DNA of 64,000 nucleotides. It comes from an uncultured Spirochaetia bacterium (lineage in GTDB: Bacteria; Spirochaetota; Brachyspiria; Brachyspirales; Brachyspiraceae). The translations under genes were made by a program, and so were the position numbers. The number at the start of each line of letters is the position of its first letter. The first letter of the stretch is position 1. The stretch is taken from contig CAMRBQ010000007.1 of assembly GCA_947040495.1 (NCBI GenBank), positions 4,623 to 68,622 on the forward strand. Direction: 5' to 3'. Shown here piece after piece: positions 4,715 through 60,184 of the stretch. The notes beneath the pieces were generated by a model, which made no database searches, was not told where the DNA came from, and saw nothing but the letters and a program-made list of their open reading frames with translations.

Positions 4715-5941
4715 ATGGGGCTATATATGAGCGAAAATATCAAATGGAAAGGCAATACTATGCCAAAAGATAATAGTAGTTATTCATGGGAAGACCATCT
4801 TTCTTTAGAAGAAGTGAATAAAGCAAAAGAATTTCATGCAAGTTTTGAAGAATATAAAGAAACACCACTTGTCAATTTACAATCTCTAGCAGATAAAATT
4901 GGGATAGGTAGCTTATATCTTAAAGATGAATCATATCGCTTTGGACTGAATGCCTTTAAGGTATTGGGTGGTTCATTTGCTATGGGGAAATATATGGCAA
5001 AGTGTTTAAACAAAGATATATCTGATTTACCATATTCAAAAATAATATCACCTGAAATTAAAAAACAATTAGGTGACATAGTGTTTTATACAGCTACAGA
5101 TGGTAATCATGGTCGTGGTGTCGCATGGACTGCTAATAGACTTAATCAAAAATCTGTTGTATATATGCCAAAAGGCTCTTCAGAATATCGATTAAAAAAC
5201 ATACAAAAAGAAGGAGCAACAGCCTCTATTACAGATATGAATTATGATGATGCTGTAAGACTTGCTGCAAAAGATGCTCAAGAAAATAATGGGCTTATAG
5301 TACAAGATACAGCTTGGGAAGGCTATGAAGAGATACCACTTTGGATTATGCAAGGCTATGGTACTATGGCTTTGGAGGCGATTAAACAATTAAATGATTA
5401 TAATGTCGATAGTCCAACGCATGTATTTGTTCAGGCGGGTGTTGGTTCTCTTGCAGGTGGAGTACAAGGGGTACTACATTCATTCTATAAAGATAAATGC
5501 CCTATAACTACAATTGTCGAATCAGATTTGGCTGACTGTCTTTATAAATCTGCGTTGGCAAATGATGGTAAGCCTAGATTTGTTGGCGGCGATATGCAAA
5601 CTATCATGGCAGGTCTTGCATGCGGCGAGCCAAATACAATTAGCTGGGAAGTATTAAAAAAATATTCAAAGATGTTTGTATCATGTCCTGATTGGGTTGC
5701 TGCTGAGGGAATGCGTATACTTGCAAAGCCTACTCACGATGATAAAAAAGTTGTATCGGGTGAATCTGGTGCTGTAACTACAGGCTTAATTGTAGAGATT
5801 ATGATAAATGATGAATATAAAGCACTTAGAGAGGAATTAAAATTAGATAAAAACTCTAAAGTTTTGGTATTTAGTACCGAAGGTGATACTGACCCAGATA
5901 TGTACAAAAAAATTGTAGATGATGGGTTTTGTAAAAAATAG
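4715..5941 (+). CDS. dpaL: Diaminopropionate ammonia-lyase (PLP-dependent; YgeX/DpaL family)
   Basis: LKDESYRFGLNAFKVLGG carries the PLP lysine motif; also TATDGNHGRGVAW. Length 408 aa. An alternative start is the ATG at 4727. Confidence 0.8.
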   Translation: MGLYMSENIKWKGNTMPKDNSSYSWEDHLSLEEVNKAKEFHASFEEYKETPLVNLQSLADKIGIGSLYLKDESYRFGLNAFKVLGGSFAMGKYMAKCLNKDISDLPYSKIISPEIKKQLGDIVFYTATDGNHGRGVAWTANRLNQKSVVYMPKGSSEYRLKNIQKEGATASITDMNYDDAVRLAAKDAQENNGLIVQDTAWEGYEEIPLWIMQGYGTMALEAIKQLNDYNVDSPTHVFVQAGVGSLAGGVQGVLHSFYKDKCPITTIVESDLADCLYKSALANDGKPRFVGGDMQTIMAGLACGEPNTISWEVLKKYSKMFVSCPDWVAAEGMRILAKPTHDDKKVVSGESGAVTTGLIVEIMINDEYKALREELKLDKNSKVLVFSTEGDTDPDMYKKIVDDGFCKK

Positions 5942-5996: not shown

Positions 5997-7307
5997 ATGT
6001 CAGAGCAACCGTATAAGTATTCCTTTTTGGGCAAGCCACCATTAGGGGAAGTATTATTATTAGGGCTTCAGCATATGATAGCAATGTTTATAGGTAATAT
6101 TACACCTATTCTTATTGTAGCACCACTTGCTGGAATAACAGATCCTGCAATGGTTACAGCCTTGGTACAAGGGGCAATGATTTCATCTGTTGTTGCGACA
6201 TTGGTACAGCTTTACCCAATTTCACTTGGAGCCAAGTTTCGTATAGGGTCAAGACTACCTGTTATTATGGGTACAAGTTTTGGCTTTATGTCTGTCAATA
6301 TGTCTATAGCGTCGCTATATGGTGTCCCAGGGATATTCGGAGCTCAAATAGTCGCTGGTCTTATAACCATACCAATAGGATTTTTGCTACCACGTATACG
6401 TAAATATTTTCCGCCGATTGTAACAGGTACGGTTATACTTTCAATAGGTCTATCACTTTTCCCTATTGCTATGAGAGATATTGCAGGTGGAGCGGGTGCA
6501 GCCGATTTTGGTTCTCTACAAAACATTGGATTAGGATTTTTTGTTCTTGTTCTTGTTATTTTCTTTTCTCAATATACAAAAGGGCTCTTGAAACTAGCAG
6601 CTATTTTTGCATCTGTTGTTATAGGTTATATTATTGCTATACCACTTGGTAAAATTAATTTAACCAGTGTAGGGGATGCTGCGTGGTTTTCACTCCCGGG
6701 TATATTAGAATTGGGTGTTACTTTTCATCTAGATTCAATAATTGCTATGACTGTTATGTATTTTGTAACAGCTTTACAGCTTATAGGTGATTTATCTGCA
6801 ACAACAATGGGTGGAATGGATAGAGAGGTTACAACAGAAGAACTATCAGGTGGGATTATTGGAAATGGGCTTAGTGCTGTGTTGTCTGCATTGTTTGGCG
6901 GGCTTCCTACAGCTACATTTAGTCAAAACGTAGGTATAGTAACATTAACAAAGGTAACTAGTCGTATAGTTATACTTGCTGCTATATGTGCTGTGGGGTT
7001 GGCAGGCTTTGTACCAAAAATGGCGGCTATTATTACATCAATACCAAGACCTGTTTTGGGTGGGGCTACAATAACTGTTTTTTCTATGATTTCATTGACA
7101 GGTATTAGAATCATAGCAAAAGAAGATTTATCATTAAATAGAAATGTTGTAGTTATTGGATTATCTCTAGCTATTGGTGGGGCTATACCTCAGGTTCCCG
7201 GTATACTTGCAAATGTAGACCCTAGCTTAAAAATTGTATTAGGCTCTAGTGTTGTTGTTTCATCGATGTTGGCAACTATTTTGAATCTAATTTTACCAAA
7301 AAAATAG
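5997..7307 (+). CDS. NCS2-family nucleobase:cation symporter (xanthine/uracil permease type)
   Basis: Polytopic 436-aa membrane protein with NCS2-like blocks GLQHMIAMF and ATFSQNVGIV. Confidence 0.8.
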   Translation: MSEQPYKYSFLGKPPLGEVLLLGLQHMIAMFIGNITPILIVAPLAGITDPAMVTALVQGAMISSVVATLVQLYPISLGAKFRIGSRLPVIMGTSFGFMSVNMSIASLYGVPGIFGAQIVAGLITIPIGFLLPRIRKYFPPIVTGTVILSIGLSLFPIAMRDIAGGAGAADFGSLQNIGLGFFVLVLVIFFSQYTKGLLKLAAIFASVVIGYIIAIPLGKINLTSVGDAAWFSLPGILELGVTFHLDSIIAMTVMYFVTALQLIGDLSATTMGGMDREVTTEELSGGIIGNGLSAVLSALFGGLPTATFSQNVGIVTLTKVTSRIVILAAICAVGLAGFVPKMAAIITSIPRPVLGGATITVFSMISLTGIRIIAKEDLSLNRNVVVIGLSLAIGGAIPQVPGILANVDPSLKIVLGSSVVVSSMLATILNLILPKK

Positions 7308-15050: not shown

Positions 15051-15060
15051 TTAATATTTT

Positions 15061-22831: not shown

Positions 22832-23794
22832 ATGAAAAAGGTGATTTTATTTATAATGCTAATAGGCTTGGTATTTGTTATATCATGCGGAAGCAAAAAG
22901 GATGAAATAGAAGATAGTTATCTTATTGAACTAGAGAATCAGTATAATCAAGATGATGAAACAGATATACAAACTGAGATTCCAGATTCTCTTACAAATG
23001 AAGATAATGATTTTACAGGTAGTACAGTAATTGATAGTGGAAGTTCAGATAATTATATATCTACAACTACAGGTAATAAAACCTATAGCAATGATGGAAC
23101 GAGAACATCTAGTACTGATAGAAGACAAGTTGTTAGTGAAAAACCTACGAGTTCATATAGACCTGTAGAAAAAACTACAAGTTCATATAAGCCAAGTAAT
23201 GTACAGAAGGCTTCATATTCAAAACCAAGACAGTTTAGATCTGTTTGGGTAGATACAAAAGACTCTCAAGTTATAAAGGATATAAGACTACTTATAGCAG
23301 GTCAAAAGTATAAAGATGCTCAGGTATATATAGACAGACTTAATGTTGATAATTTACCAAGTACAGATGTCGGGCATTTATATCAATTCAAAGGTATCGT
23401 ACATTATTTCTTAGTACCAGAAGATTCTAGGGCTTTCTCTGTAGGTATAGAATCTTTTCAAAAAGCATATGAAGAAACAGATGTAGAGAAGTTTAAACCA
23501 CTTTCAATACTTTGGCTTGGTATGTTATATGAAAAATACTCAAATAATACAGTAGAACTACAGCAGGCTGTTAATTTATTTGATGAGGTAATCAATAGCT
23601 ACTCTAATACAAGATTTGTTAATGATGCTGTTTTCTATAAGGCTTTAACATTGCAAAAACTTGATAGAGATGATGAATATAATGAGTTAATATTATCTTT
23701 GAAAAATAATACATATCCAGATAATCTTATTTATTCTAAGTGGAATAATGATTATATAAAAACGGATATTCTTTTATCTAAATATGCAAATTAG
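22832..23794 (+). CDS. Lipoprotein with low-complexity Ser/Thr-rich linker and TPR-like helical C-terminal domain
   Basis: Lipobox FVISC after a signal peptide; tandem EKxTSSY(R/K)P motif; helical repeat-like C-terminus. No specific family recognised. Confidence 0.45.
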   Translation: MKKVILFIMLIGLVFVISCGSKKDEIEDSYLIELENQYNQDDETDIQTEIPDSLTNEDNDFTGSTVIDSGSSDNYISTTTGNKTYSNDGTRTSSTDRRQVVSEKPTSSYRPVEKTTSSYKPSNVQKASYSKPRQFRSVWVDTKDSQVIKDIRLLIAGQKYKDAQVYIDRLNVDNLPSTDVGHLYQFKGIVHYFLVPEDSRAFSVGIESFQKAYEETDVEKFKPLSILWLGMLYEKYSNNTVELQQAVNLFDEVINSYSNTRFVNDAVFYKALTLQKLDRDDEYNELILSLKNNTYPDNLIYSKWNNDYIKTDILLSKYAN

Positions 23795-23882: not shown

Positions 23883-25751
23883 ATGGAACATCTTTTGAAA
23901 ACAAATAATAATAATTATGATGTAATAGTTGTAGGGGCAGGGCATGCGGGTATTGAAGCTGCTCTTGCTAGTGCAAAGCTTGCTTGTAATACACTTTTAA
24001 TAACTATCAATCTTGATAATATGGGCCAGCTATCTTGCAATCCATCTATTGGTGGCATTGCTAAAGGGCAAATCGTAAAAGAGATAGATGCCCTTGGTGG
24101 AATCATGGGACATGTAATCGACAATACCATGATGCAATTTCGTATGCTTAATAAAAGTAAAGGTAAAGCCGTATGGGCCCCACGTTCGCAGGCGGATAAA
24201 TATGCATATAAAGACTATGTAACAAATGTTTTATATGCTCAAAAAAATCTATCTATTATGCAAGATATAGTTATATCTTTATGTGTAGAAAATAAAAAAA
24301 TTGTTGGTGTAAAGACTGAGCGTAATAATATATATACAGCAAAATCTGTTGTTCTTACTACGGGTACATTTTTGAATGGGCTTATTCATATTGGGCAATA
24401 TCAAAAAGCCGCTGGTCGTATTGGTGAATTGCCTGCAGTTGGGCTGTCTGACAATCTTCTATCACTAGGTTTTTCTGTCGGTAGATTAAAAACCGGCACT
24501 CCTGCTAGAATAGACAAAGATAGTATAGACTATAATAAAACTGAAATACAACATGGCGATGATAAAATATATCCATTTTCATATGAAACTAATAGCATAG
24601 ATATAGAACAAACTCCATGTTGGTCTATATATACAAATATAAATATACATAAAATTATACAAGATAATATTCATCTTTCTCCATTATATTCTGGTCGTAT
24701 TACAGGTGTTGGTCCAAGATATTGCCCGAGTATTGAAGATAAGGTTGTTCGCTTTGCTGATAAGGATAGGCATCAATTGTTTTTGGAATTAGAATCGCTA
24801 CGTAGCAATGAAGTTTATATAAATGGATTTTCATCTAGCTTGCCCGAGCATGTTCAAAATCAAATGATTCATAGCCTAGTAGGTCTTGAGGAAGTAAAAA
24901 TATTAAAGCCTGCCTATGCTATAGAATATGACTATGTCAATCCAATAGATTTATATCCAACACTCGAAACAAAGATTATAGAAGGGCTCTTTCATGCTGG
25001 GCAAATCAATGGTACTAGTGGATATGAAGAGGCAGCAGCTCAAGGTTTAATAGCAGGCATTAATGCGGCATTAAAAATACAAGAGCGAGATAGTTTTATA
25101 TTAAAGCGTAGTGATGCATATATCGGTGTTCTTATCGATGACCTTACAACTAAGGGAACAACCGAGCCATATAGAATGTTTACATCTCAAGCGGAATATA
25201 GAATGATATTAAGGCAAGATAATGCTGATGAAAGGCTTACAAAATTATCATTTGATATTGGGCTTGCTAGCGAACATAAATATTTAAAAGTCGTAGAAAA
25301 AGTAAAACAGAGAGATAAACTTATTGCTTATCTTGGCGGATATTATCTATCAAAAGAAGAGCTACTTAATATTGGGCTTGAAAAAGAAGCAAACGAATAT
25401 AAATCTATTAATTTAGCAAATATAGTGAAGCGTCCACAATGCGGTATCGATTATATAAAAAATATTGGTGAAGTATCAAACTATAATGAAAATGTCATAG
25501 AGAGTGCTGAGATAAATATAAAATATGAGGGATATATTAAGCGGGCGCAAAATGATATTGAAAACATGAAAAAATATGAGAACATGAAAATCCCAATAGA
25601 TTTTGATTATGACCTTGTGCCAAGTATAAAAACAGAGGCAAAAGAAAAATTAAAACTGCATAGACCGCTTTCTATTTCTCAAGCAACTAGAATATCTGGA
25701 ATTGACCCATCCGTAATACAGGCTCTAATGATTCTACTGCGTAGGCTTTAG
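23883..25751 (+). CDS. mnmG: tRNA uridine 5-carboxymethylaminomethyl modification enzyme
   Basis: YDVIVVGAGHAGIEAA FAD motif and GQINGTSGYEEAAAQG; 622 aa. Confidence 0.95.
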   Translation: MEHLLKTNNNNYDVIVVGAGHAGIEAALASAKLACNTLLITINLDNMGQLSCNPSIGGIAKGQIVKEIDALGGIMGHVIDNTMMQFRMLNKSKGKAVWAPRSQADKYAYKDYVTNVLYAQKNLSIMQDIVISLCVENKKIVGVKTERNNIYTAKSVVLTTGTFLNGLIHIGQYQKAAGRIGELPAVGLSDNLLSLGFSVGRLKTGTPARIDKDSIDYNKTEIQHGDDKIYPFSYETNSIDIEQTPCWSIYTNINIHKIIQDNIHLSPLYSGRITGVGPRYCPSIEDKVVRFADKDRHQLFLELESLRSNEVYINGFSSSLPEHVQNQMIHSLVGLEEVKILKPAYAIEYDYVNPIDLYPTLETKIIEGLFHAGQINGTSGYEEAAAQGLIAGINAALKIQERDSFILKRSDAYIGVLIDDLTTKGTTEPYRMFTSQAEYRMILRQDNADERLTKLSFDIGLASEHKYLKVVEKVKQRDKLIAYLGGYYLSKEELLNIGLEKEANEYKSINLANIVKRPQCGIDYIKNIGEVSNYNENVIESAEINIKYEGYIKRAQNDIENMKKYENMKIPIDFDYDLVPSIKTEAKEKLKLHRPLSISQATRISGIDPSVIQALMILLRRL

Positions 25752-25772
25752 TTGCATATATAAAATGCATTA
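25734..25772 (+). repeat. Left arm of the inverted repeat bracketing RadC-like cassette 1 (overlaps the last 18 nt of mnmG)
   Basis: ctactgcgtaggctttagttgcatatataaaatgcatta matches the reverse complement of 26692-26730 at 32 of 39 positions by hand, with the first 15 nt identical. Confidence 0.75.
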
Positions 25773-25847
25773 TTGCATTGAAATGTGTTACTAGGCAAAG
25801 TGCTGCGGGGTATGCCTTGTTTTAGTTGTACATTATAAAGCTGTCTA

Positions 25848-26561
25848 TCATTTCAATTTGTCTATTTCTTTTTTTGGTATATTTGTAATTTTTATTATTT
25901 CTTCTATATTATAATTCATAGATAACATTTCTTTTGCTATTTCAATATTTCTTTTTTCGATACCAACTTTTTCACCTTCTTTTTTTCCATCAAGTTTATA
26001 ATCTTGCTTCTCTTTATCCAAAATATCTTTGACATCATCAACAGCCTGATAGGTTATATCTTGTTCGAAAAAATCTATATATTTTTCTACAAAAAAACTA
26101 TAGTAAATTGATTCTTCACTTTCTAAAGATGAGCGTGAAATTATTATATGGTCAATTAAATTTAGCCCCAAATATTTCGACCTATGATAAAATTTATTCG
26201 TAAAGTCTATATCATATTGTGAAGGCTCAGGATTTTTTCTACTTGTATGATTATGGGCAATAACAATATTTTTTGATTTATGTTTTACGGCTGTATCAAA
26301 AATATCTATGATAGGAAGCTTCACCATATTTTCAGTGCCCAAAGCCACAAGATAAATACAAACAACATATCCATCGCTGTCCATGCCCATTATCCAAAAA
26401 TGCTCTTTACTATATAAATCTTTATTCTCAATTTTTAACACATGGATAAACGCTCTATAATAATCTTCTACGCTGCTTATTTTTATAGATTTTTTTTTAA
26501 TATCTTTGACAGTTCTAATCAACATTTTTTTATTATCTTCAATTTTTTTCTTGCTTGCCAT
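25848..26561 (-). CDS. RadC-like JAB/MPN-domain protein, paralog 1 (C-terminal HTH-like tail)
   Basis: EHFW...AHNHTSRKNPEPSQYD fits the RadC-type E / HxH / SxxD signature. About two thirds identical to the 31078..31791 product by eye. Confidence 0.75.
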   Translation of the reverse strand: MASKKKIEDNKKMLIRTVKDIKKKSIKISSVEDYYRAFIHVLKIENKDLYSKEHFWIMGMDSDGYVVCIYLVALGTENMVKLPIIDIFDTAVKHKSKNIVIAHNHTSRKNPEPSQYDIDFTNKFYHRSKYLGLNLIDHIIISRSSLESEESIYYSFFVEKYIDFFEQDITYQAVDDVKDILDKEKQDYKLDGKKEGEKVGIEKRNIEIAKEMLSMNYNIEEIIKITNIPKKEIDKLK

Positions 26562-26691
26562 GAGATATACCTTTGTAATTATTTATTAGTTTTTTTATGA
26601 TTTTTTATTATATACAATATTTTATTATTTGCAGTACTTTTCCTAGTAGCACATACAAAATCAATATAATAAAATATATATTTAAATGTTA

Positions 26692-26730
26692 GAATGCAAT
26701 TATAATGTGCAACTTAAGCCTACGCAGTAG
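26692..26730 (-). repeat. Right arm of the inverted repeat of cassette 1
   Basis: The reverse complement reads ctactgcgtaggcttaagttgcacattataattgcattc. Confidence 0.75.
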
Positions 26731-26736
26731 TGTATT

Positions 26737-26758
26737 AAAATGTGCAACTAGGAAAACC
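26737..26758 (-). repeat. Additional copy of the repeat core next to cassette 1
   Basis: The reverse complement reads ggttttcctagttgcacattttaat. Further partial cores lie at 25782-25795 (-), 25822-25838 (+) and 26642-26659 (+). Confidence 0.6.
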
Positions 26759-28199: not shown

Positions 28200-28204
28200 G
28201 TTAT

Positions 28205-30808: not shown

Positions 30809-30827
30809 GAAAATGCATTTAATTAAT

Positions 30828-30901
30828 GTGCCTGTAGCTCAGCTGGATAGAGCGTTAGATTGCGGTTCTAAAGGCCGGAGGTTCGAATCCTCTCAGGCAC
30901 A
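30828..30901 (+). tRNA. tRNA-Arg, anticodon read as GCG
   Basis: Hand-folded cloverleaf: acceptor GTGCCTG/CAGGCAC, D stem GCTC/GAGC, anticodon stem TTAGA/TCTAA with loop TTGCGGT, and T arm GGAGG-TTCGAAT-CCTCT. No encoded CCA. Confidence 0.8.
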
Positions 30902-30910
30902 ATTGCTACT

Positions 30911-30997
30911 GGAGAGATGTCCGAGTCTGGTTTAAGGAGCACGATTGGAAGTCGTGTGTGCGGCAACGTACCGTGGGTTCGAATCCCACTTTCTCCG
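30911..30997 (+). tRNA. tRNA-Ser, anticodon GGA (class II, long variable arm)
   Basis: Acceptor GGAGAGA/TTTCTCC, anticodon stem CACGA/TCGTG with loop TTGGAAG, a 17-nt variable arm and T arm GTGGG-TTCGAAT-CCCAC. Confidence 0.85.
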
Positions 30998-31006
30998 ATT
31001 CTTTCC

Positions 31007-31055
31007 CTAAGTTGCACATTGTAATATTCATATTAACATACAAATATATTTGACT
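31007..31055 (+). repeat. Conserved non-coding flank (repeat core plus 21-nt block) downstream of RadC-like paralog 2
   Basis: ctaagttgcacattgtaatattcatattaacatacaaatatatttgact differs from 53701-53749 at about 6 of 50 aligned columns (hand alignment). Confidence 0.75.
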
Positions 31056-31077
31056 ACATCATGCTTGCAATACCAAA

Positions 31078-31791
31078 TTATATTTTTAAATTTTTAATTT
31101 CTTTTTCAGTTAACCCAGTTGCTTTAATAATAGTTTCTATATCTAAATTAAGATTTAATAATTTTTTTGCTATAGATATTTTCTCTTCATGTTTCCCTTC
31201 AACTTTGCCATCTTTTTTTCCGTCAAGTTTATAATCTTGTTTTTCTTTATCCAAAATATCTTTAACATCATCTACTAATTTATAACTTAAATCCTGCTTA
31301 AAAAAATCCATTAATCCTGTTACCAAAAAACTATAATAAATTGATTCTCTACTTTCTAAAGATAAAGCTGAAAGTATTATATGGTCGAGTACATTAATAT
31401 TTAAATATTGCGAAACATGAGAAAGCTTGTTTGTGAAATCAATATCAAATTGTGAAGGCTCAGGGTTTTTTCTCGTTGTATGATTATGAGCCACTACTAT
31501 ATTTGTTGCTTTCGATTGAACTGCTATGCCAAAAACATCGGTCATGGGAACTTTCACCATATTCTCGCTACCCAAAGCTACTAAATATAGACAAACAGAA
31601 TAGCTGTCATTATCAATACCCATTATCCAAAAATGTTCTTTACTATATAAAGATTTAGGTTCTCTTTTGAAAAAATCAAGAAAAATTTTATAGTAATCTT
31701 CTACGGTATTAATTTTACTAGCTTTTAATTTGAAACCCTTAATGGTTTGAACTTCCATTTTTTTGACTTCAGTTTTTTTCTTGCTCACCAT
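31078..31791 (-). CDS. RadC-like JAB/MPN-domain protein, paralog 2
   Basis: EHFW...AHNHTTRKNPEPSQFD signature. The C-terminal tail IAKKLLNLNLDIETIIKATGLTEKEIKNLK is HTH-like. Confidence 0.75.
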   Translation of the reverse strand: MVSKKKTEVKKMEVQTIKGFKLKASKINTVEDYYKIFLDFFKREPKSLYSKEHFWIMGIDNDSYSVCLYLVALGSENMVKVPMTDVFGIAVQSKATNIVVAHNHTTRKNPEPSQFDIDFTNKLSHVSQYLNINVLDHIILSALSLESRESIYYSFLVTGLMDFFKQDLSYKLVDDVKDILDKEKQDYKLDGKKDGKVEGKHEEKISIAKKLLNLNLDIETIIKATGLTEKEIKNLKI

Positions 31792-31860
31792 AAAATATAC
31801 CTTTATAATTATTTATTAGTTTTTATTATTATATATAATAAAATATATATTTAAATGCTA

Positions 31861-31886
31861 GAATGCAATTATAATGTGCAACTAGG
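31861..31886 (-). repeat. Inverted copy of the repeat core upstream of RadC-like paralog 2
   Basis: The reverse complement reads cctagttgcacattataattgcattc. It is nearly identical to the inner part of 26692-26730. Confidence 0.75.
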
Positions 31887-31975
31887 AAAAAACTTGATTT
31901 TTAATCGGTTAGTTGTATTATCATATTTATATTAGTATTTACTATAAAAAAATAATATTTAAGGCGGTTGTTATT

Positions 31976-52236: not shown

Positions 52237-53688
52237 ATGAAAGAAGACTCTCAATCTAGGGTTAAAGTGAGAAAAAGGGTATTGCATGTATCTAAAAAAT
52301 CTGTTAACTCAAAAACACCAATAAAGTCTAATAGAGAAGAAAAAGCTATTTTTAAAAATGAAAATAGTTTGGAAGAAAATACTTATAATGGAATAACAAC
52401 CACAGAGGCAATAGATAAAGATACTATTAATGATATACTTCATGTTAGCCAACTTAGTCAATTAACTTTGGATGGACTTATTTCTATTGGTGTTAAATAT
52501 GGTATTGCCTATGAAGGCAGCATCAAAAGACAAGACCTTATGCATGCTATTTTACGTAGCCAGATTTCAAATGGTGGTAAAATTATAGCTGATGGTACAT
52601 TAGAAATATTACCTGATGGATATGGATTTTTGCGTTCAAAGATGTCGAACTATCTACCTGGTTCAGATGATATATATATATCGCCATCACAGATAAGGCT
52701 TTTTGCTCTCAGAACAGGCGACCTTGTATCTGGTGAAGTACGCCCACCAAAAGATAATGAACGATTTTTTGCTCTACTTAGAATAGATACTGTAAATGAA
52801 GATACTGCTGATAATTCATTTAAACGACCGGTATTTGAAAGCCTCACACCAATATTTCCAAATGAAAGAATGGATTTAGAATTCTCTCCTTCAAAAATTG
52901 CAACACGTGTTATAAATCTTGTTTCACCTATTGGTAAAGGTCAGCGTGGTTTAATTGTTGCCCCGCCAAAAGCTGGAAAGACTATGATACTTCAAGAGAT
53001 AGCCAATGCTATAAGCTCAAACTATTCCGATGTGAAATTATTTATTTTACTTATAGATGAACGTCCTGAAGAAGTTACAGATATGGCTCGTCATGTTCGT
53101 GCTGAAGTTATTGGCAGTACATTCGATGAACCGCCTGAGAAGCATGTACAGGTGTCTGAGATGGTGCTTGAAAAGGCAAAACGACTTGTAGAAAAAGGCC
53201 ATGATGTTGTTATCATGCTCGATTCTATAACAAAACTCGCACGTGCTTATAACCTTGTTGTGCCTGCTAGTGGAAAAATATTGACAGGTGGTATCGATTC
53301 AAATGCACTTCATAAACCAAAGAGATTTTTTGGTGCTGCTCGAAATATTGAAGAGGGTGGCTCTCTAACTATTATTGCGACAGCCCTTGTCGATACAGGT
53401 AGTAGAATGGATGAGTATATATACGAGGAATTCAAGGGTACTGGTAATATGGAATTACACCTTGAAAGAAAACTTGCAAATAGAAGACTTTTCCCTGCTA
53501 TCAATATAAATAATTCTTCGACAAGAAAAGAAGAAATGTTGCTTACTGAAGAAGAAATGAATAAGATGTGGGCATTTAGAAAATTCATACAGAATCAAAT
53601 GGACGAAAGCGAAGTTATGGAACTTGTTATTGATAAAATGAATTCTACTAAAGATAATATGAGTTTCTTAAAGCTTATGAATGGCTAG
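52237..53688 (+). CDS. rho: Transcription termination factor Rho with ~65-aa N-terminal extension
   Basis: GFLRS..., Walker [18 protein letters not shown] and LARAYN blocks; 483 aa. Confidence 0.96.
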
Positions 53689-53749
53689 GTACGGCGTACG
53701 CTTAAGTAGCACATTATAATATTGGTATAACATACAAATATATTTGACT
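53689..53749 (+). repeat. Conserved non-coding flank (repeat core plus 21-nt block) downstream of RadC-like paralog 3, starting 1 nt after the rho stop
   Basis: gtacggcgtacgcttaagtagcacattataatatt... The first 27 nt resemble the cassette 1 repeat arms (21 of 27 vs the right arm, 19 of 27 vs the left). 53701-53749 parallels 31007-31055. Confidence 0.7.
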
Positions 53750-53780
53750 TCCTCTGTCTACTAAATTATAAAGATGTCTA

Positions 53781-54461
53781 TCATTTTAATTTGTTTATTT
53801 CTTTTTGACTTAGACCTGTATGTTTAGAAATTATATTAATATCAATGTTATCAGCTAACATACTTTTTACTATTTCAATATTTCTTTTTTTAATCATATC
53901 ATAAGCATAATCTTTTTTTTCTTCTTCCAACATCGGTTTTAATTCTTCATAAGGCGTATAAGAAATATCTTCATGTATACTTTTCATAACATGCATTTCT
54001 TTATAGCTATAATAAATTGCTGTTTCGCTTGTTAGGCTTTTTGTAGAAATAATAATATGGTCGAGCAATGTTAGCCCCACAATACTTGCCATATGATAAA
54101 CTTTATTTGTGAATAGAACATCTTCATCTGATGGAATAATCTCACTTACATCTGGATGATTATGAGCGAGTATAACCCTTTGGCAACTATGATTAATAGC
54201 AGTTTTAAATAAATCATGTGCTGTTAAATTTACAAAATTGCCACCACCCAAAGCGACTATATATGCACAAACTGTGTAGCCTTTATCATTCACACCGATA
54301 AGCCAAGCATGTTCTTTTTGCTCTAATTCTTTATCTTCACTTTTAAGTAGATTTACAAAGATACGATAATAGTTTTCTATCTTTTCTATTCTAACTCTTT
54401 CTTTTTTTATTTTTTTGATAGTATTAATTATCATCATATCTTCTACTTTTTTCTTTACCAT
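53781..54461 (-). CDS. RadC-like JAB/MPN-domain protein, paralog 3 (divergent)
   Basis: EHAW...AHNHPDVSEIIPSDED signature. The C-terminal tail IVKSMLADNIDINIISKHTGLSQKEINKLK resembles that of paralogs 1 and 2. Confidence 0.7.
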   Translation of the reverse strand: MVKKKVEDMMIINTIKKIKKERVRIEKIENYYRIFVNLLKSEDKELEQKEHAWLIGVNDKGYTVCAYIVALGGGNFVNLTAHDLFKTAINHSCQRVILAHNHPDVSEIIPSDEDVLFTNKVYHMASIVGLTLLDHIIISTKSLTSETAIYYSYKEMHVMKSIHEDISYTPYEELKPMLEEEKKDYAYDMIKKRNIEIVKSMLADNIDINIISKHTGLSQKEINKLK

Positions 54462-58191: not shown

Positions 58192-59236
58192 TTATATTTT
58201 TATAATAGACTTTACAATGTTTGATTTGTCTTTTAAGCTTTCATCCATAGCATTTTGGATATCATTAAAATCAAATATATTTGTTACAATACTTTTTATA
58301 TTTATTGAACCATGCTGAACAGCACTTATGCATAATGGATATATATGTCTATATCTAAAGACAGTTTTAAATGTTAGCTCTTTATTCAAAGCGATACTTA
58401 TATTTATATCAGCATTTCCACTTTCAGGATATCCAACGAACACGATAGTAGAACCCATTTTGGCAAAATTGATTGATTGGTTCATCGCTATTTGCATTCC
58501 CGATGTTTCTATTGTAAGGTCAGAGCCTTTTCCATCAGTTAATTCTAATGTTCTTTCTACGACATTTTCTTTGGATGCATCAATTACTCCAGTAGCACCA
58601 ATCTCTAATGCTTTATTAAGTCTGTTTTTTACGACATCTATGACATAAACTTTTGAGACACCACAAGATTTTAAAGATAGCATAGAACATAAACCTATAC
58701 ATCCTGCCCCTGTAATAAATGCTGTTTGTCCTATATGGGATCCCCTTGTCTAGCAGCATGCATTCCAACAGATAAAGGTTCAATTAAAGCACCTTCAAGT
58801 GTAGTTAGTTGTTCAGGAAGTTTGAAAGATAAATACTCAGGATGTGCCACATATTCTTGAAAGACACCATCAATAGGGGGGGGGCAAAAAATATTACATC
58901 TGGACATAAGTTATATTTACCATTTCTACAAAAATAGCAGTTCCCACAAGTTTTACCGGGTTCAAGTGCTATTTTGTCACCAACTTTTAAACTTTTGACA
59001 TCTTTACCAATTTCGACAACAATACCTGCTGCTTCATGACCTAAAACAAAAGGTGGTTTCACTATATAATCGCCTATAGCACCAGTTTTATAATAATGTA
59101 AATCTGAACCACATATACCAACATATTCAATTTTTACTAAGACTTCGTCATCACAAGGTTTTGGTATATCCTTTTCTATTATCTTCATTTGTTCAATATC
59201 TGTCATAACAGCAACTTTCATTTTAGAATTTTTCAT
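58192..59236 (-). pseudogene. Zinc-dependent sorbitol/L-iditol dehydrogenase-like gene, disrupted by at least two frameshifts
   Basis: The N-terminal ORF (58805..59236: GICGSDLHY, GHEAAG) and the C-terminal ORF (58192..58683) lie in different frames. A third frame in between reads PIDGVFQEYVAHPEYLSFKLPEQLTTLEGALIEPLSVGMHAARQG. Confidence 0.8.
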
Positions 59237-59430: not shown

Positions 59431-60141
59431 TCAATTTGGAACTATTGTTATATGACAAAATTCACCACTACGTATATTGTCTCCTTCATATAGTTTTCTA
59501 TCAAATAGTATTGCACCGCCAATGCCATTACTCATAGAAAGATATATAGCGTTATTATTTAGTAAATTAAGTTTTGCAAATAGAGCAGCATTTACATCGT
59601 TTATAAAAATACATGGAAAGTTTATATATTTTCTAAAATCACCATATGGTACTTTTCCAAATCCCAAGACATGGGAAGAAGATATATATTTATTTGATTT
59701 ATCAATAATACCCAGTATAGAAATGCCAACTCCAAGTATTATATATCTATCTACCTTAGATGCATCTATAAAAGTTTCTATGCTAATCGTAATGTTTTTA
59801 AAATATGAATCTTTATATTCAAATTTTTTTCTATTTTAATATGCTCTTTAATTTTTCCAATTAAATTGACAAGGCTACGTTGATATTATTTTTGGTTATA
59901 TCTAATCTTAAAGCAAAGTGTGCATTTCTATTTACAGATAAAGATTGGGCTTTACATCCACCACTAGATTCTAATTCGCCAACTTTGTCTATGAGGTTTT
60001 ATTTTAAAAGCTCATTTGTATTTTGTAATACAGTTGGTATATTCATTTTTAAAGCGTCTGCTATATTTTGTTTGGATAATTTATCATTTTTTAGAATATA
60101 TATCAATATACTATTTTTATTTATTTTTTTATGTCTATGTT
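59431..60141 (-). pseudogene. ROK-family regulator/kinase gene remnant (in-frame stop, several frameshifts, no start)
   Basis: Own minus-strand translation: HKKINKNSILIYILKNDKLSKQNIADALKMNIPTVLQNTNELLK*NLIDKVGELESSGGCKAQSL. The distal part equals track ORF 59431..59667. Confidence 0.6.
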
Positions 60142-60184
60142 ATTACTTCTATTATATAGCTGGATATATTTTTATATTGTGAAA

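Follow-up and report, generated by a model that had tools for sequence, protein, structure and literature searches.

Is the RadC-like gene that lies just beyond a tRNA-Ser gene in an uncultured spirochaete a mobile cassette, and what would have placed it there? The gene stands in a 64,000-nt stretch of contig CAMRBQ010000007.1 (positions 4,623 to 68,622; GenBank assembly GCA_947040495.1) from an uncultured Spirochaetia bacterium of the Brachyspiraceae; the whole stretch is called the window below. It had been picked out by a reading of the letters and their translated open reading frames (ORFs), made without database searches (the sequence-only reading). The window holds three RadC-like cassette paralogs, labelled cas1, cas2 and cas3 and each on the minus strand; cas2 is the copy beside the tRNA. 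We put at roughly 0.5 the probability that a RadC-like gene and its two inward-facing end units form an insertion-sequence-like or mobile-insertion-cassette-like module. The support consists of the dispersal of the modules, paralogy that ends at the unit edges, the exclusive association of the units with these genes, their inward orientation, their position in 3'-end spacers and the loss of the last codons of PurA.

The inverted repeat core noticed earlier around the gene beside tRNA-Ser was confirmed, and it is the centre of an inverted repeat of ~58 nt (31002-31059 against 31833-31890), extending far past the 16-nt core. The downstream core, AGTTGCACATTGTAAT (31010-31025, plus strand; outer variant TTTCCCTAAGTTGCAC), and the upstream core, AGTTGCACATTATAAT (31868-31883, minus strand; outer variant TTTTTTCCTAGTTGCAC), differ at one R position and bracket the 237-aa ORF. 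Allowing ≤2 mismatches, the core occurs eight times in the window where 0.39 occurrences are expected; none of 100 shuffles reached 8. Local alignment of the two cas2 end units scored 55 against 24.4 ± 4.5 for shuffled sequences (0 of 1000 shuffles reached 55). The hexanucleotide CCGATT, common to the outside of both cas2 units, was judged a chance match.

Protein look-up yielded further paralogs, both in the same metagenome assembly and in sister samples that contain this strain (contigs L120 and L121 are 100% identical, as are L124 and L125), and ~146 kb of DNA of this organism was examined in all. The family occupies at least nine dispersed loci, each with one lone RadC-like gene amid unrelated housekeeping genes, and 16 close homologs were found among 5.8 billion proteins, nearly all of this lineage. 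Counting copies of the repeat with an nhmmer profile gave at least 17 significant units in the ~146 kb, all adjoining RadC-like genes, and no solo copy; the 13-nt outer segment was likewise confined to the flanks of these genes. Units lie on both sides of cas1, cas2 and the modules of L120, L122 and L131, and 17 of the 18 significant copies face inward, so that the outer end is the one farther from the gene. Beyond the outer edge of the units the copies are no longer similar, which upholds the earlier view of a discrete one-gene cassette with inverted ends.

Alignment of 12 flanking copies defined a unit of ~60-70 nt. Its outer part reads (A/G)CTAC(T/G)GCGTA(G/C)GCTT(A/T), or carries the variant TTTTCCT; the core is AGTTGCACAT(T)ATAAT, followed in many copies by TGCA; and the inner part is AT-rich (...ACATTTAAATATAT...). 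All copies conserve the outer 23-30 nt, (TAC)TGCGTASGCTTWAGTTGCACAT, which stands at both ends of the modules and also in short downstream copies too small to contain a promoter; it is a putative end site for recognition by a protein. The promoter of the module is probably supplied by the AT-rich inner part of the upstream unit, within which the best -35/-10 match for cas2 falls. Two tandem copies of the 23-nt end occur on the downstream sides of the L122 and L131 modules, and face-to-face doublets without a gene were found at cas1 25733-25812 (25733-25796 with 25783-25812), at cas1 26632-26732 (26632-26665 with 26665-26732) and at L122 9297-9393. These doublets and tandem ends resemble deletion derivatives and multi-site transposon ends.

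At every neighbouring 3' end that faces a module, the unit starts 0-9 nt away or overlaps it; the outer edge of the cas2 downstream unit is 3-9 nt from the tRNA-Ser 3' end. Four neighbours take their stop codon from the module. The mnmG gene (stop TAG 25749-25751, within the cas1 downstream unit 25733-25796) and the EamA gene share the TAG of ...CTTTAG as their stop, read in one frame and at one position of the unit, and purA and argS end on the TAG of GCGTAG or GAGTAG; the stops of rho, the DegT-type gene, fliE and the permease gene abut a unit. PurA ends here in ...ETFTTA*, with TTA* encoded by the unit, and its relatives (77% and 71% identity), which have no module downstream and differ in synteny, end in ...TFNR* and ...TFFR*. 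Because the ends differ from those of the relatives, the unit appears to have overwritten the native last codons, which argues for insertion. The genome is very compact: for three of the four convergent gene pairs in the window the spacers are 10, 5 and 2 nt (15051-15060, 28200-28204 and 60183-60184), with no room for intrinsic terminators between them. Since permissive 3'-end sites are tiny in a compact genome, the tight fit needs no special targeting. The adjacency to tRNA-Ser is incidental, one more 3' end, and the idea that the tRNA served as a special landing site fails on the other copies, which abut the stops of mnmG, rho, purA, argS, fliE and the DegT-type, EamA and permease genes.

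The cas2 protein comprises a RadC-type JAB domain (about residues 30-160) and an RpnS-like tail (about residues 177-237). PF04002 was matched at 78.5 bits by cas2, 79.8 by cas1 and 77.1 by cas3, against a cut-off of 22.1, and the cas1 and cas2 proteins are 63% identical. Judged from its residues, the JAMM-type metal site E...HxH...S..D is intact: E52, H102, H104 and D116 are invariant and S113 nearly so among 16 family members. The cas2 sequence matched the RadC structure PDB 2qlc (E 1.7e-21), as did an AlphaFold2 (AF2) model of the protein (predicted local distance difference test score, pLDDT, 80) in Foldseek (E 2.5e-9, TMt 0.88). The canonical RadC/YicR models (NF000642, TIGR00608) were not reached, with 68 bits against a cut-off of 180 and a match to model positions 108-201 alone. 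At E 1.8e-9 the last ~70 residues matched the C-terminal end of TIGR01784 (Rpn family recombination-promoting nuclease/putative transposase); this match is below the family cut-off and limited to model positions 203-272 of 273. The tail also matched the RpnA(S) crystal structure 7th0 (E 6e-4, residues 196-233) and has a precomputed Pfam assignment to PF27070 (HTH_Rpn_C); PF27070 was not among the matches of the tail in the local Pfam copy, and the assignment is drawn from the precomputed hits, NCBIfam and PDB. A long helix followed by three short helices is predicted for the tail. The linker contains four-residue repeats (KEGK, VEGK, KKDG), from none to about six among the paralogs (alignment columns 224-260), and an in-frame Met ~28 residues before the repeats is common, not universal.

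The N-terminal domain is the JAB domain, and a PD-(D/E)XK nuclease domain is not present there; the predicted architecture is Rpn-like, with a RadC-type JAB domain replacing the PD-(D/E)XK nuclease. This replacement echoes the earlier proposal, based on domain displacement, that the RadC JAB domain may be a nuclease (PMC3239186). A profile search returned 218 clusters of the same architecture at E below 1e-30, mostly full-length and of 200-250 aa. The architecture thus exists beyond this organism, and in the literature searched it appears undescribed. Against plasmids and phages, tblastn returned JAB-only relatives and not the full architecture, and protein relatives in IMG/VR covered the JAB domain alone; PADLOC gave no match. 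RpnS tails are the oligomerisation domain and intragenic antitoxin of toxic, phage-defensive Rpn nucleases, and a variable number of four-residue repeats, differing between strains, is their hallmark (PMC10400941). By analogy the JAB/Rpn-tail protein is probably of the toxin, defence or addiction type.

Pairwise synonymous divergence (dS) between the copies ranges from 0.4 to above 2, with ratios of nonsynonymous to synonymous divergence (dN/dS) of 0.16-0.6; by these estimates the paralogs are old and individually maintained under purifying selection. Between cas1 and cas2, identity is 98% over 51 nt of the upstream unit and 74% in the coding sequences (CDS; dS 1.13), so the unit is better conserved than synonymous sites. 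For cas2 and P0002, the CDS is 89% identical and the unit 72%. Sliding comparison showed cas2 to be a mosaic of a cas1-type unit, a P0002-like 5' portion (the proximal promoter and first 150 nt are 100% identical to P0002) and a P0011-like tail (90-94% identical to P0011). The copies appear to exchange segments by recombination.

Table 1. Features at the RadC-like modules and beside tRNA-Ser (positions in the window; for paralogs outside it the contig and gene neighbourhood are given).
Feature	Position or contig	Strand	Evidence or context
tRNA-Arg(GCG), context	30827..30902	+	ARAGORN; Rfam RF00005, 69.5 bits
tRNA-Ser(GGA)	30910..30998	+	ARAGORN; Rfam RF00005
cas2 downstream end unit, gene-facing	31002..31059	+	nhmmer E 1.4e-9
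cas2 gene, 237 aa	31078..31791	-	PF04002 RadC E 5e-22
Best promoter-like site for cas2 (TTTAAA, 16 nt, TATAAT)	31855-31828	-	consensus match alone, 10/12
cas2 upstream end unit, gene-facing	31833..31890	-	nhmmer E 3.5e-11
cas1 downstream end unit, type A, ACTGCGTAGGCTTTAGTTGCA...	25733..25796	+	nhmmer E 5e-14
Outward-facing type-B unit fragment near cas1	25783..25812	-	sequence
Second, short cas1 downstream unit, reaching the stop codon	25802..25864	+	nhmmer E 1.9e-7; core 25824-25839
cas1 gene, 237 aa, JAB + Rpn-type tail	25848..26561	-	PF04002 E 2e-22
Outward-facing type-B unit fragment upstream of cas1	26632..26665	+	weak nhmmer match, E 0.37
cas1 upstream end unit, type A	26665..26732	-	nhmmer E 2.6e-18
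Extra partial type-B unit outside cas1 upstream unit	26734..26753	-	nhmmer E 0.019
cas3 downstream end unit, starting at the rho stop (TAG 53686-53688)	53687..53754	+	nhmmer E 1.4e-15
cas3 gene, 226 aa, JAB + Rpn-type tail	53781..54461	-	PF04002 E 1.4e-21; TIGR01784 tail E 9e-6
P0002	L120		between purA and argS
P0003	L122		between DegT-type gene and fliE
P0009	L131		between EamA gene and ABC permease
P0004	L130		
P0011	L124		
P0012	L123		

Under the favoured reading, the modules would have spread within the genome of this uncultured spirochaete, their end units being recognised by a protein at the conserved outer 23-30 nt, while the inner AT-rich part of the upstream unit would drive the module's own gene. 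Movement would proceed without target duplication, by an enzyme with no recognised candidate in the window. The cargo would combine a RadC-type JAB metalloenzyme with an RpnS-like tail for oligomerisation, and its probable toxin, defence or addiction character could explain why old copies are kept intact under purifying selection. The cassette encodes no recognisable mobility enzyme, as had been stated before. Mobilisation in trans, which the sequence-only reading had offered as one fit, can at most be inferred, and no partner element, target-site duplication or empty site was found at this locus.

Several observations weigh against a mobile module. Transposase, recombinase and integrase domains were absent from the sizeable ORFs of the 64-kb window and from the fetched flanks. 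No target-site duplication was seen at five well-defined modules, including cas2 and those of L120, L122 and L131. At the tRNA-Ser locus no empty site or polymorphism was shown; the compared strains are 98-99% identical, the one contig from such a strain at this locus (L132) ends inside tRNA-Arg, and the nearest outside homolog of the neighbouring pyridoxal phosphate (PLP) enzyme, 63% identical in a Brevinema sp. metagenome-assembled genome, is too distant for an empty-site test. The expectation that units always pair around RadC-like ORFs holds for the five modules named above and breaks down elsewhere: with the nhmmer profile, no unit was detectable on the upstream side of cas3, none was found at the L123 and L124 paralogs, and that of L130 is degenerate. 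The copies are 40-89% identical in DNA, and there was therefore no recent burst. Conservation of the ends in place across old paralogs would also be expected of a regulatory site or of gene conversion.

Searches elsewhere were made with the unit and its parts. A scan of assembled contigs (596 Gb) with the 15-nt core, a length at which hundreds of chance matches are expected, gave 118 matching stretches, of which the 81 listed were single matches from unrelated taxa, and was uninformative. JGI metagenomes gave nothing relevant, either to a 22-nt end pattern or to the protein alignment. An 18-nt end pattern matched twice in IMG/VR, both times by chance (inside a 1098-aa ORF in L127 and in unrelated GC-rich sequence in L126). 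In plasmids and phages blastn matched the AT-rich inner part of the unit alone, at E 0.01 or worse; a match in Borreliella cp32 was intergenic and unrelated.

The unit could instead be purely regulatory, a common operator or promoter of a potentially toxic paralog family, with the inverted downstream copy serving convergent or antisense control or looping and with the genes scattered by ordinary duplication and rearrangement. A promoter role had been offered earlier as an alternative to mobility, and it is partly borne out: the strongest -35/-10 match lies in the inner upstream unit, at a plausible spacing from the ATG. A TGCA-N9/10-TGCA dyad in 6 of the 12 units and the conservation of the unit above synonymous sites also favour regulation, as does the cas3 downstream unit, where TTGACT, 17 nt and TATAAA point toward the 3' end of the gene. 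The antisense-promoter model of the downstream unit was rejected, because it fits cas3 only and not the short downstream copies. The promoter role does not extend to the part conserved in all copies, the outer 23-30 nt at both ends, which is not promoter-like; several downstream copies consist of this short segment alone, without room for a promoter. Symmetric ends at the borders of paralogy, gene-less tandem and face-to-face copies and overwritten C-termini of neighbours would be unexpected of a regulatory site. The other conventional role proposed earlier, that of a terminator, found no support: no intrinsic terminator was predicted at the units, which show no hairpin plus T-run, and fold z-scores were unremarkable (-1.2 to +1.05, both strands), with no stable conserved hairpin or other sign of a structured RNA. 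Rfam found nothing in the window but the two tRNAs. We regard a purely regulatory unit as unlikely.

In a second alternative the element would be autonomous: the JAB protein, dimerised through its Rpn-type tail, would itself bind the 23-nt ends and cut or join DNA, in a layout like that of an insertion sequence (IS) or of repetitive extragenic palindromes (REPs) with their REP-associated tyrosine transposases (RAYTs), and the recombinase would be of a new kind. A single ORF enclosed by inverted ends is what classically marks an IS, and the units occur only in cis to the RadC-like genes, as REPs flank RAYT genes. We know of no JAB enzyme that catalyses DNA strand transfer, which counts against such a role. 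Further objections are the age and divergence of the copies and the lack of units at some intact paralogs; more than 200 clusters of the same architecture elsewhere gave no evidence of repeats in this analysis. A RadC-type JAB domain has been proposed as a nuclease (PMC3239186) and here displaces the Rpn PD-(D/E)XK nuclease, and an oligomerising tail could bridge two ends (PMC10400941); Rpn proteins themselves were judged not to be transposases (PMC10400941). Self-mobilisation therefore seems quite improbable to us; if true, it would define insertion elements of a new class and provide the long-enigmatic RadC JAB domain with its first concrete DNA substrate.

Thirdly, the flanks might chiefly be aids to, or products of, gene conversion by which JAB and tail segments are shuffled among the paralogs of a rapidly diversifying defence-type family. 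The three-part mosaic of cas2 (cas1 unit 98%, P0002 5' part 100%, P0011 tail 90-94%) and the discordance of unit and CDS similarities agree with this, as do the L132 and L133 contigs, which change partner inside the tail. In these contigs, which come from a strain 98-99% identical to the window (L132 4900-5544 and L133 2351-3396; sample ERZ28618731), the sequence switches within the RadC tail to the 3' end of another paralog, followed by purD in L132 and by a radical SAM gene in L133, and the switch reflects either paralog recombination or assembly chimerism; relatives of the L132-type protein occur on 73-kb and 146-kb contigs. Such chimeras could be artefacts of assembly, and exchange points lie within the gene as well as in the flanks. 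Shuffling would leave the inverted symmetry, the initial dispersal and the gene-less doublets unexplained, and as the main function or origin of the flanks we hold it to be very unlikely. Finally, a classic tRNA-targeted integrative element or its remnant, suggested by a module a few nucleotides from the tRNA-Ser 3' end, is essentially excluded, as there is no integrase in the window or flanks, the tRNA 3' end has no att-like direct repeat at the far end, the flanking repeats are inverted rather than direct, and eight other junctions lie at stops of protein genes, not at tRNAs.

Some features of the other loci and of the window were recorded in addition. The sister-sample contig L121 stops 43 nt upstream of the P0002 gene (L121 1-43), within the unit, and L132 begins inside tRNA-Arg; together these ends are consistent with assembly breaks at repeats. 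The most divergent paralog, P0012 (286 aa; region L123 6001-9201), has two tail copies; an unusual GC-rich stretch (6990-7045) follows its stop codon, and genes for a DNA methylase and an MwoI-like restriction enzyme come ~400 nt downstream of it, a defence-type neighbourhood. P0011 (L124), which lacks the unit, has another 26-nt inverted repeat (5834-5859 / 6581-6606), 77% complementary with a 12-nt perfect core, AAAAAATTGAGT, and borderline against chance in AT-rich DNA. Genome G+C is about 30%, and flagellar and CheX genes are present, features that would suit a Brevinema-like spirochaete. At 58192-59236 of the window (minus strand) the two domains of a zinc-type alcohol dehydrogenase lie in separate ORFs (ADH_N 58805-59236, ADH_zinc_N 58192-58683), probably a pseudogene with a frameshift or an interruption. 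ORFs of 320, 120 and 100 aa at 22832-23794 and 59477-60182 (both plus strand) had no Pfam match at E up to 1e-5.

Among known systems, the Rpn genes (YhgA-like; COG5464 / TIGR01784) are likewise single-gene, multi-copy units with a homologous C-terminal tail and a variable number of four-residue repeats (PMC10400941, PMC5350276). They are gained and lost like insertion sequences (PMC10400941, PMC5350276), and RpnAS is a three-helix bundle (PMC10400941). The rpn genes are reported to have no identifiable inverted terminal repeats, target duplications or defined ends (PMC10400941), whereas the modules described here have defined inverted ends and carry JAB in place of the PD-(D/E)XK nuclease. 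Rpn-type genes are widespread and IS-like in behaviour, and here defined, conserved ends join an Rpn-like architecture with a JAB domain.

Mobile insertion cassettes (MICs) and elements like miniature inverted-repeat transposable elements (MITEs), such as MIC231 and the qnrD mics (PMC3913671), also place a short passenger gene between inverted ends, without a transposase inside, in multiple copies and with gene-less deletion derivatives. The present modules differ in that they lack target-site duplications, that no cognate IS sharing their ends was found in the window and fetched flanks, that their copies are far more diverged than in typical MIC/MITE families, and that their ends include tandem and nested units. 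REPtrons share the single gene between inward-facing short repeats, the inverted doublets and the lack of target duplication; here, however, the gene encodes a JAB metalloenzyme and not an HUH (Y1) transposase, there are many paralogous genes rather than one, and no units lie away from genes in ~146 kb, whereas REPs number hundreds genome-wide. The dif (pdif) modules of Acinetobacter plasmids (PMC6449649) are alike in being one- or two-gene units between inverted sites; they often carry toxin-antitoxin genes and are moved in trans without target duplication (PMC6449649). Unlike them, the present modules are chromosomal and dispersed rather than in plasmid arrays, and no Xer-type core was found in 12 units (11-6-11 site / CATAA-N6-8-TTATG, ≤1 mismatch).

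With canonical RadC/YicR (UPF0758) the protein shares the JAB fold and the E...HxH...S..D metal site; it differs in lacking the N-terminal helix-hairpin-helix (HhH) domain, in carrying an Rpn-type tail instead and in being encoded by a multi-copy gene. For decades, to our knowledge, no biochemical role has been established for RadC-type JAB domains. The family is one more example of non-homologous domain displacement and as such lends support to a role of RadC JAB on nucleic acids, and its 23-nt unit, (TAC)TGCGTASGCTTWAGTTGCAC, provides a testable DNA site for binding or cutting by the JAB or Rpn-tail protein and a handle on how single-gene defence or toxin modules move and reshape a compact symbiont genome.

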